A stretch of 64,000 nt of DNA from an uncultured Candidatus Binatia bacterium (GCA_965220955.1 CBDCRK010000004.1:23277-87276); one strand, 5' to 3'. Positions 4,041 to 4,364 are shown, numbered from the stretch's first letter. Notes: generated by a model from the letters alone, not told the origin. A program made the numbers and translations.

Positions 4041-4063
4041 TACCAAAGTCCAACCCAAAATTG

Positions 4064-4087
4064 CATACTCCGTAGGAGAATCCAAAC
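4064..4087 (+). repeat. Lone degenerate CRISPR repeat-like core (psiR3) between cas1 and cas2
   Basis: catactccgtaggagaatccaaac versus repeat core catgctccgtaggagattgaaac. The CUCC-GUA-GGAG hairpin is intact. It ends 1 nt before the cas2 GTG start, and its GGAG stem arm doubles as the cas2 Shine-Dalgarno. Confidence 0.6.
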
Positions 4088-4088
4088 T

Positions 4089-4364
4089 GTGTTCATTGTG
4101 ATCTCATACGATATTAAAAGTGACAGACGCCGCGGTCGGATCTTCAAGACCCTCAAGAACTTTGGCCAGTGGATGCAATACAGCGTGTTTGAGTGTGAGT
4201 TAGACAAATTGCATTTTCTACGCCTCAGAGACCGGCTTGATCACCTCATTGACCCTGACGAGGATGACAGTATACGGTTCTATTTCTTATGCGAAGGGTG
4301 TAAGCAACAGATCGAGCGAGTAGGCGGAGAAAAGCCACGAGCAAAAGGGGCAGTCATTGTATGA
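4089..4364 (+). CDS. cas2: CRISPR-associated endoribonuclease Cas2
   Basis: 91 aa. MFIVISYDIKSDRRRGRIFKTLKNFGQWMQYSVFECELD is a canonical Cas2 N-terminus. GTG start. Confidence 0.9.
   Translation: MFIVISYDIKSDRRRGRIFKTLKNFGQWMQYSVFECELDKLHFLRLRDRLDHLIDPDEDDSIRFYFLCEGCKQQIERVGGEKPRAKGAVIV

Follow-up and report, generated by a model that had tools for sequence, protein, structure and literature searches.

A repeat-derived hairpin overlapping the cas2 ribosome-binding site of a type I-D CRISPR-cas operon: a candidate Cas6 site

[quoted passage not shown] 2023, bioRxiv 10.1101/2023.03.03.530964 / PMC10120712). The elements CreR, CreA and crlRNA (Li lab) consist of a pair of repeats around a spacer that is in part complementary to a promoter, and act via Cascade on DNA (bioRxiv 10.1101/2023.03.10.532045; PMC8501985). 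In Sulfolobus solfataricus, Cas6-3 cuts the repeat-like precursor of ncRNA60, which is then loaded into Csm (Sokolowski et al. 2014, PMC4041471), and the RNA anti-CRISPRs (Racr) of phages and plasmids are solitary repeat units that engage Cas6 and other Cas proteins (PMC10651486).

The element treated here lies between cas1 and cas2 of a type I-D operon from an uncultured Candidatus Binatia bacterium and resembles the catalogued sequences in being repeat-derived, in lying between genes of the cas operon rather than in the array and in having crRNA sense; unlike the I-D cases described so far, it is a single hairpin without a spacer, overlaps a ribosome-binding site (RBS) and is proposed to act in cis via Cas6. 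With CreR, CreA and crlRNA, which serve the self-regulation of cas genes, it shares the use of degenerate CRISPR repeats; in contrast to them it is one unit with no spacer and no target found, and their layout of two repeats plus a spacer is absent from the cas1-cas2 gap and present elsewhere in the operon, at 2268-2379. The known crRNA-like regulators thus guide Cascade to promoters, whereas the control of Cas2 proposed below would operate on RNA and in cis. Like ncRNA60, which Cas6 cuts at the position expected from the repeat, the junction motif is a single repeat-like motif near cas genes and outside the array; unlike the non-coding ncRNA60, the RNA downstream of it is the cas2 message and the Shine-Dalgarno (SD) sequence lies inside it. 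The Racr RNAs are invader-encoded decoys acting in trans, whereas this element is chromosomal, part of the cas operon, and would act in cis. Engineered hairpins for Csy4 (Cas6f) reportedly cut mRNAs and insulate translation, in work by Qi and colleagues from 2012, with the RBS placed downstream of the cut. Here too a Cas6-family hairpin in a 5' untranslated region would set the leader kept by the downstream open reading frame (ORF), but the SD at the junction precedes the predicted cut, so that cas2 would lose it. The junction element belongs to the known class of standalone repeats; our literature search found no paper on a Cas6 hairpin serving also as the RBS of cas2, although one may exist beyond its coverage.

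The operon and its repeat-derived units

The window, meaning the whole 64,000-nt stretch of DNA analysed, opens inside a type I-D cas operon that is already under way at the first base, as seen from profile matches and from the upstream sequence of the same contig, which carries in order a WYL-domain gene, cas10d, csc2/cas7, csc1/cas5 and the cas3' region. The features that matter here are the following.

1411-2265, plus strand: cas6 (matches to TIGR01877, PF19308 and PF10040)
2268-2304, plus strand: psiR1, a degenerate full-length repeat, 27/37 to the repeat (background maximum 22), with an exact hairpin core
2305-2342, plus strand: spacer-like segment of 38 nt between psiR1 and psiR2
2343-2379, plus strand: psiR2, a degenerate full-length repeat, 30/37 to the repeat, ending 12 nt upstream of the cas4 ATG
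2392-3030, plus strand: cas4 (TIGR00372, E 1e-43)
3039-4040, plus strand: cas1 of type I-D (TIGR04093 cas1_CYANO, 403.9 bits against a cut-off of 385)
4048-4087, plus strand: repeat-derived unit from gapped alignment to the array repeats, its 5' half very degenerate
4068-4078, plus strand: hairpin CTCC-GTA-GGAG, an exact match to the repeat hairpin, with the 3' arm at 4075-4078
4089-4364, plus strand: cas2, with a GTG start (TIGR01573)
4562-6507, plus strand: CRISPR array of 27 repeats of 37 nt, from a repeat-family search

The cas2 product begins VFIVISYD, which aligns with MF(I/V)VISYD of its relatives; because it aligns from residue 1 with ATG-starting relatives, the GTG at 4089 is taken as the true start. 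A leader of about 200 nt separates cas2 from the array, in which two repeat alleles differ by one compensated, loop-closing base pair: CTCT-GTA-AGAG in 19 repeats, including all 8 nearest the leader, and CTCC-GTA-GGAG in the other 8. All three cis elements of the cas operon carry CTCC/GGAG, and relatives show no other allele. A further match to the first 14 nt of the repeat (GTTGgAACGAACCT) stands at 7097-7110, about 590 nt beyond the last repeat and on the far side of an unassigned ORF of 145 aa (6603-7040); it may mark a former end of the array that an insertion has cut off. At the other end of the operon, the cas3' region (L006:11257-12401 plus window positions 1-1319) is made of three ORFs of 235, 287 and 300 aa, two of which overlap in different frames. 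Their match to Cas3' of relatives is too weak to separate frameshifts from divergence; the interference nuclease may have been broken by frameshifts, or the layout of the gene may be a divergent one.

The gap between the cas1 stop (TAG, 4038-4040) and the cas2 start measures 48 nt and contains, at 4064-4087 on the plus strand and in the orientation of the array and the cas genes, the sequence CATaCTCCGTAGGAGAaTcCAAAC. Within it, CTCCGTAGGAGA (4068-4079) matches the CTCC/GGAG repeat allele exactly, and this 12-mer occurs, with at most one mismatch, 11 times in the window against 0.32 expected. The element at 4064-4087 agrees with the 3' 23 nt of the repeat at 18/23 ungapped positions, a score lowered by a 1-nt insertion in the handle; the latter reads AATCCAAAC against ATTGAAAC for the 8-nt handle of the repeat (1-nt insertion and 2 mismatches), and the handles at three related junctions (L195, L201 and L113) keep 4-6 of the 8 nt. 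Gapped alignment further suggests that 4048-4087 is a degenerate full-length repeat. An earlier note on this DNA had placed a repeat hairpin with a degenerate handle between the cas1 stop and the cas2 GTG, and the exact 12-nt core and the 18/23 agreement bear this out: the element is derived from the repeat. It has the marks of a solitary repeat unit, namely similarity beyond chance, position in a cas gap, array orientation and presence in related loci; an Rfam search of the junction gave no family match.

The run AGGAG is the only SD-like one in the gap, and its GGAG, the 3' arm of the stem, ends 10 nt upstream of the GTG, which is the correct RBS spacing for cas2, so that the note was also right in naming this arm as the sole SD-like sequence of the gene. 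A stem that contains the SD at a functional spacing from the start codon is what characterises an SD-sequestering operator hairpin, and the shape and loop, identical to those of the repeat, are the structural features of a candidate Cas6 site. Folding predictions in an 80-nt context give a lowest-energy structure without the 4-bp hairpin (z -0.1); isolated elements are predicted to fold into the hairpin at -4 to -6 kcal/mol. A scan of 2200-4620 for promoters and terminators yielded no promoter-like or terminator-like site between cas1 and cas2.

The same note had called the hairpin a lone one, which does not hold: two more degenerate repeats, psiR1 and psiR2, lie between cas6 and cas4, and at least six more units occur elsewhere in the genome. 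The two are spaced by 75 nt, like an array unit. The spacer-like segment between them aligns to an internal cas4 segment of related loci (27/38 in L194, 18/22 in L204-206) and not to the cas4 of the present locus; these matches came from local alignment, blastn-short having returned none.

The stem-loop in related loci

A scan for Cas1 across genome and metagenome contigs gave mostly distant loci (39-66% identity), and the comparison set comprises the 17 distinct I-D loci with Cas1 79-86% identical and an available cas1-cas2 junction. Eight of the 17 have a 4-bp hairpin with a GTA loop whose purine 3' arm lies 6-11 nt upstream of the cas2 start.

This locus: stem CTCC/GGAG
L112: stem CTCC/GGAG
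L113: stem CTCC/GGAG
L194: stem CTCT/AGAG
L111: stem CCCT/AGGG
L149: stem CCCC/GGGG
L195: stem CTTC/GGGG, followed by ATTGAAGG and then ATG
L201: stem CTCT/GGAG, followed by GTTGAAGT and then ATG

The gaps of these hairpin loci range from 23 to 280 nt and their flanks are unalignable; the hairpin always abuts cas2. Relative to the cas1 stop it starts 27 nt downstream here, only 6 nt downstream in L113 and L194, and more than 150 nt downstream in L195 and L201. In 15 of the 16 other loci the array or lone repeats have a 3' half that is exactly CTCCGTAGGAGATTGAAAC, with stem CTCC/GGAG, and none was present in the L113 DNA examined. The L201 junction contains two repeat-like units 74 nt apart, the second abutting the cas2 ATG, and its cas2-proximal hairpin therefore derives from a real repeat. 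The 37 nt between the units of this mini-array (L201:3503-3687) are a diverged fragment of the 5' part of cas2, 24/30 to nt 13-42 of the gene of the same locus. The cas4 border of the present locus is built likewise: two repeats enclose a fragment from another version of the adjoining gene, and the gene itself comes next.

In the eight aligned junctions, 32 of 32 stem cells pair; this figure is partly circular, since the hairpin set was chosen by requiring pairing, and only the double changes count as independent evidence. Such two-sided, compensatory changes are seen in four cells, in 2 of the 4 pairs, and three further changes preserve a G-U wobble that fits the mRNA (sense) strand only; controls with partners slid sideways give 44-69% pairing and almost no double changes. 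None of the 24 positions of the GTA loop is changed, whereas 11 of the 64 stem positions are (P ~0.01 by our own arithmetic, which ignores shared ancestry). In five loci the junction stem pairs in spite of being unlike the stem of the resident array, so that the stem changes most likely arose in place. Judging from these alignments, selection maintains the stem-loop, both its pairing and its loop, in several of the related loci. The constraint may be on structure rather than on the exact target of Cas6, because junction stems drift while the array repeats of the relatives stay CTCC/GGAG.

The earlier note had proposed a comparison of homologous junctions, and its expectation of conservation is upheld in part, for the eight loci with compensatory changes and not for about half of the set: 9 of the 17 loci are without the hairpin and have plain SDs. 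One of the latter, L010, retains an apparent decayed copy (CTCAGTGGAAG), and L199, which has no cas2, a hairpin remnant (aaCCGTAGGAG). In the Cas1+Cas2 tree, the present locus groups with L112 and L113, all three with CTCC/GGAG, and L203 and L010-L012 form a well-supported clade without the hairpin; a single origin of the junction hairpin is compatible with this tree, and the hairpin is dispensable, since a plain SD or a decayed copy is all that the hairpin-less clade has. A Smith-Waterman comparison of each junction with its own repeat in about 85 loci gave no general signal in the more distant, mostly cyanobacterial I-D loci; signal was restricted to the close I-D clade and four I-C loci. 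The 205-nt cas1-cas2 gap of one relative (G030; L009 = L202:3503-3707) holds an element with inverted ends CTAAATCGAACCACA...TGTGGTCTGATTTAG.

Copies elsewhere in the genome and in type I-C loci

The bare 11-nt core has 11 matches genome-wide against about 10 expected; nine sites outside the array, though, match at least 18 of the 23 3' nt of the repeat, where the background tail predicts about 2 at 18 and fewer than 1 above. A chance origin was considered for the repeat-like copies and dropped: the bare core is at about chance level across the genome, but copies with matching flanks are not. Three of the nine sites are in the cas operon and six in housekeeping contexts; a seventh, shorter copy precedes a DUF1844 gene. 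The copies outside the cas operon include the following.

L002:5342-5378 and L002:4861-4897, minus strand: two units flanking a hadA-like dehydratase gene in a thiolase/hopanoid-transport (lipid) operon
L003:4981-5017, minus strand: near-complete repeat between yicC and gmk, in the gmk 5' coding region
L004:5011-5047, minus strand: unit overlapping the rnpA start (MSPTLRRRLKK...), the ATG lying within its 5' half
L001:4933-5046, antisense: mini-array of two units 77 nt apart between luciferase-like monooxygenase and M3 peptidase genes, far from cas

In gmk, the unit is a 12-residue in-frame insertion (..NIETNAMLRRRLK..), and the N-terminus of Gmk in seven relatives is 12 residues shorter and contains no unit. 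At L002:5342-5378, GGAG and ATTGAAAT directly precede the ATG of the hadA-like gene, and the hairpin arm is therefore the SD of that gene. The rnpA copy and L002:4861-4897 have in common derived bases (TACGCTTC and a terminal AAAA) that are absent from the array, and therefore form a sub-family. No target was found for the spacer of the mini-array in L001. Five relatives of the same order have 0-3 solitary copies each. As this genome spreads repeat-like units widely, the presence of one is in itself no proof of function.

The second CRISPR system of the genome is of type I-C (Cas3, Cas5c, Cas8c, Cas7, Cas4, Cas1, Cas2). A degenerate solitary repeat overlaps its cas2 stop (L215:10483-10519), about 215 nt upstream of the array, a layout shared with the I-D loci L111 and L149, where a further solitary repeat stands directly 3' of cas2. 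In I-C loci of same-order relatives, repeat-derived units occur between cas1 and cas2 at L013:1431-1497, L015:2518-2569, L016:1414-1497 and L017:1444-1497; the predicted structures of L013, L016 and L017 include a repeat-like stem, some of whose changes are balanced by a change in the pairing partner, and L013 and L015 have a separate SD downstream of the unit.

Possible control of Cas2 by Cas6 and competing explanations

How cells curb spacer acquisition is little understood. The reading that we favour, at a probability of roughly 0.45, is that the junction element is a repeat-derived site under selection at which Cas6 binds or cuts, masking or removing the SD of cas2. A degenerate CRISPR repeat would have become the cas2 5' untranslated region, its stem-loop being the structure that Cas6 handles in pre-crRNA. 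On the cas4-cas1-cas2 mRNA, Cas6 would bind the hairpin and probably cut after G4078, where the stem ends on its 3' side; the SD would be hidden by the bound protein, and the cut would leave cas2 with a 10-nt, SD-less leader while Cas6 stayed on the 3' end of the cas4-cas1 fragment. By either route, free Cas6 would lower Cas2 relative to Cas1, and the dose of the adaptation complex would be tied to the Cas6 left unoccupied by pre-crRNA. If true, crRNA processing would be coupled to adaptation directly and in a very compact way, on RNA and in cis, and Cas6 sinks such as strong array transcription or phage RNA decoys would be predicted to raise Cas2.

The binding, the cleavage and the effect on Cas2 are what we infer here. 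The product of cas6, an endoribonuclease presumed to recognise the repeat hairpin, is 70% identical to Cas6 of the relative G012 across all 283 aa and appears intact, and its gene belongs to the same operon as cas1 and cas2, which is supporting context. A 4-bp stem has little stability of its own, and the fold predicted in context does not contain it; a protein partner is therefore the simplest reason for keeping the hairpin, and Cas6 is the obvious candidate because the repeat hairpin is its presumed substrate. The position of the cut, which the earlier note had put between the SD and the start codon, retains its place by analogy with the Synechocystis I-D enzyme Cas6-1, whose cleavage site lies 8 nt from the end of the repeat, at the foot of the stem on its 3' side (PMC5741207); cleavage after G4078 would put the SD and cas2 on different fragments. 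Cas6-1 shows promiscuity in vitro, which along with the cutting of ncRNA60 by Cas6-3 is a precedent for the proposed site, and context or competing structure can prevent its cleavage (PMC5741207); in the modelled mRNA context, a competing structure may likewise block the junction hairpin. The recurrence of repeat-derived cas1-cas2 units in type I-C counts for a Cas6 site, and the 9 of 17 loci without a hairpin, the degenerate handle and the lack of any such similarity in the more distant I-D loci count against. If Cas6 reads the bases of the stem, the drifted junction stems may bind poorly, a concern offset by the use of both CTCC/GGAG and CTCT/AGAG in the array of the present locus.

A hairpin that masks the cas2 SD without Cas6, and that ribosomes terminating on cas1 would open so as to fix the Cas1:Cas2 ratio, accounts for an SD within the 3' arm at the correct spacing in 8 of 8 loci and for stems that drift and still pair, as a purely structural constraint would predict; the hairpins of L113 and L194, at 6 nt past the cas1 stop, are also within reach of a terminating ribosome. 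We regard it as rather unlikely, since 4 bp closing a 3-nt loop make a marginal hairpin that is absent from the predicted fold in context, the distances of 27 nt here and more than 150 nt in L195 and L201 are too great for direct coupling, and the loop, which should vary freely, is invariant and the same as that of the repeat. The loop also bears on the idea that the element is a scar of recombination or module exchange at repeats, in which only the purine run is kept as an SD and the rest decays neutrally: neutral decay should break the stem, yet eight loci show the four double and three wobble-preserving changes and none that is disruptive, and no loop change accompanies flanks that have diverged past alignment. 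Such a scar is improbable on these grounds, although L201, with its repeat, different-cas2 fragment (24/30), repeat and cas2, and the present locus, with a different-cas4 fragment likewise placed before cas4, would fit such exchange, and the solitary repeats just past cas2 in L111 and L149, the hairpin-less junctions of L010-L012, the decayed-looking CTCAGTGGAAG of L010, the remnant of L199 with no cas2 and the badly degraded 5' half and handle of the unit here all agree with it.

The copies outside the operon invite another explanation, a dispersed family of 37-nt units that spread into intergenic gaps and gene 5' ends and whose cas2 copy has no cas-specific role. The six units in housekeeping contexts that match at least 18/23, the N-terminal insertion in Gmk that relatives lack, the rnpA start supplied by a unit and the 0-3 solitary copies in each of five same-order relatives speak for it; but the hairpin is common to the nearest Cas1/Cas2 relatives, L112 and L113, and to more distant loci of other organisms at the same distance from cas2, and must therefore predate the spread in this genome, which makes this account very unlikely. 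It is more doubtful still, to the point of being hard to credit, that the element is a remnant or half of a crRNA-like guide gene of the CreR/CreA type, whose RNA would be loaded into Cascade to repress a promoter. I-D loci do contain mini-arrays of such a type (Shmakov et al. 2023), and one is present at 2268-2379 and another at the cas1-cas2 junction of L201; the junction here, however, has a single unit with a degenerate handle, and the coding sequence of cas2 comes next. A search of the cas locus gave no partial target next to a PAM for the spacers of 2305-2342 and of the contig C45 unit, 10-12-nt seed matches elsewhere being at chance level, and the first 3 nt of the L201 spacer mismatch, with an in-register PAM that by our own reading is ATT and not GTN.

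Beyond the proposed action of Cas6 at the cas2 SD, a broader scheme can be drawn from the positions of the repeat-derived hairpins, which would bracket the adaptation genes before cas4, before cas2 and after cas2. Hairpins for the processing nuclease (Cas6 in I-D, Cas5c in I-C) would flank these genes as if they were oversized spacers, a general post-transcriptional circuit would set the dose of Cas2, and with it adaptation, by nuclease load, and the gmk, rnpA and lipid-operon copies would form a small Cas6 regulon outside immunity; we consider this speculative and quite unlikely.

Repeat-like units are also found at other gene borders of related loci. In G012 (L027:1573-1591, minus strand; position 5410 of the reverse complement), an exact 19-nt hairpin and handle, CTCCGTAGGAGATTGAAAC, ends 28 nt upstream of the cas6 ATG, and this cas6-proximal unit is without the 5' half of the repeat. 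In L196 and at L200:2071-2089, the part of the sequence with a match to cas4 contains a repeat-like hairpin and handle (CCCTGTAAGGGATTGCAAC); the gene product predicted there is about 35-40 aa longer than in relatives, and the unit may be an intragenic insertion in cas4.
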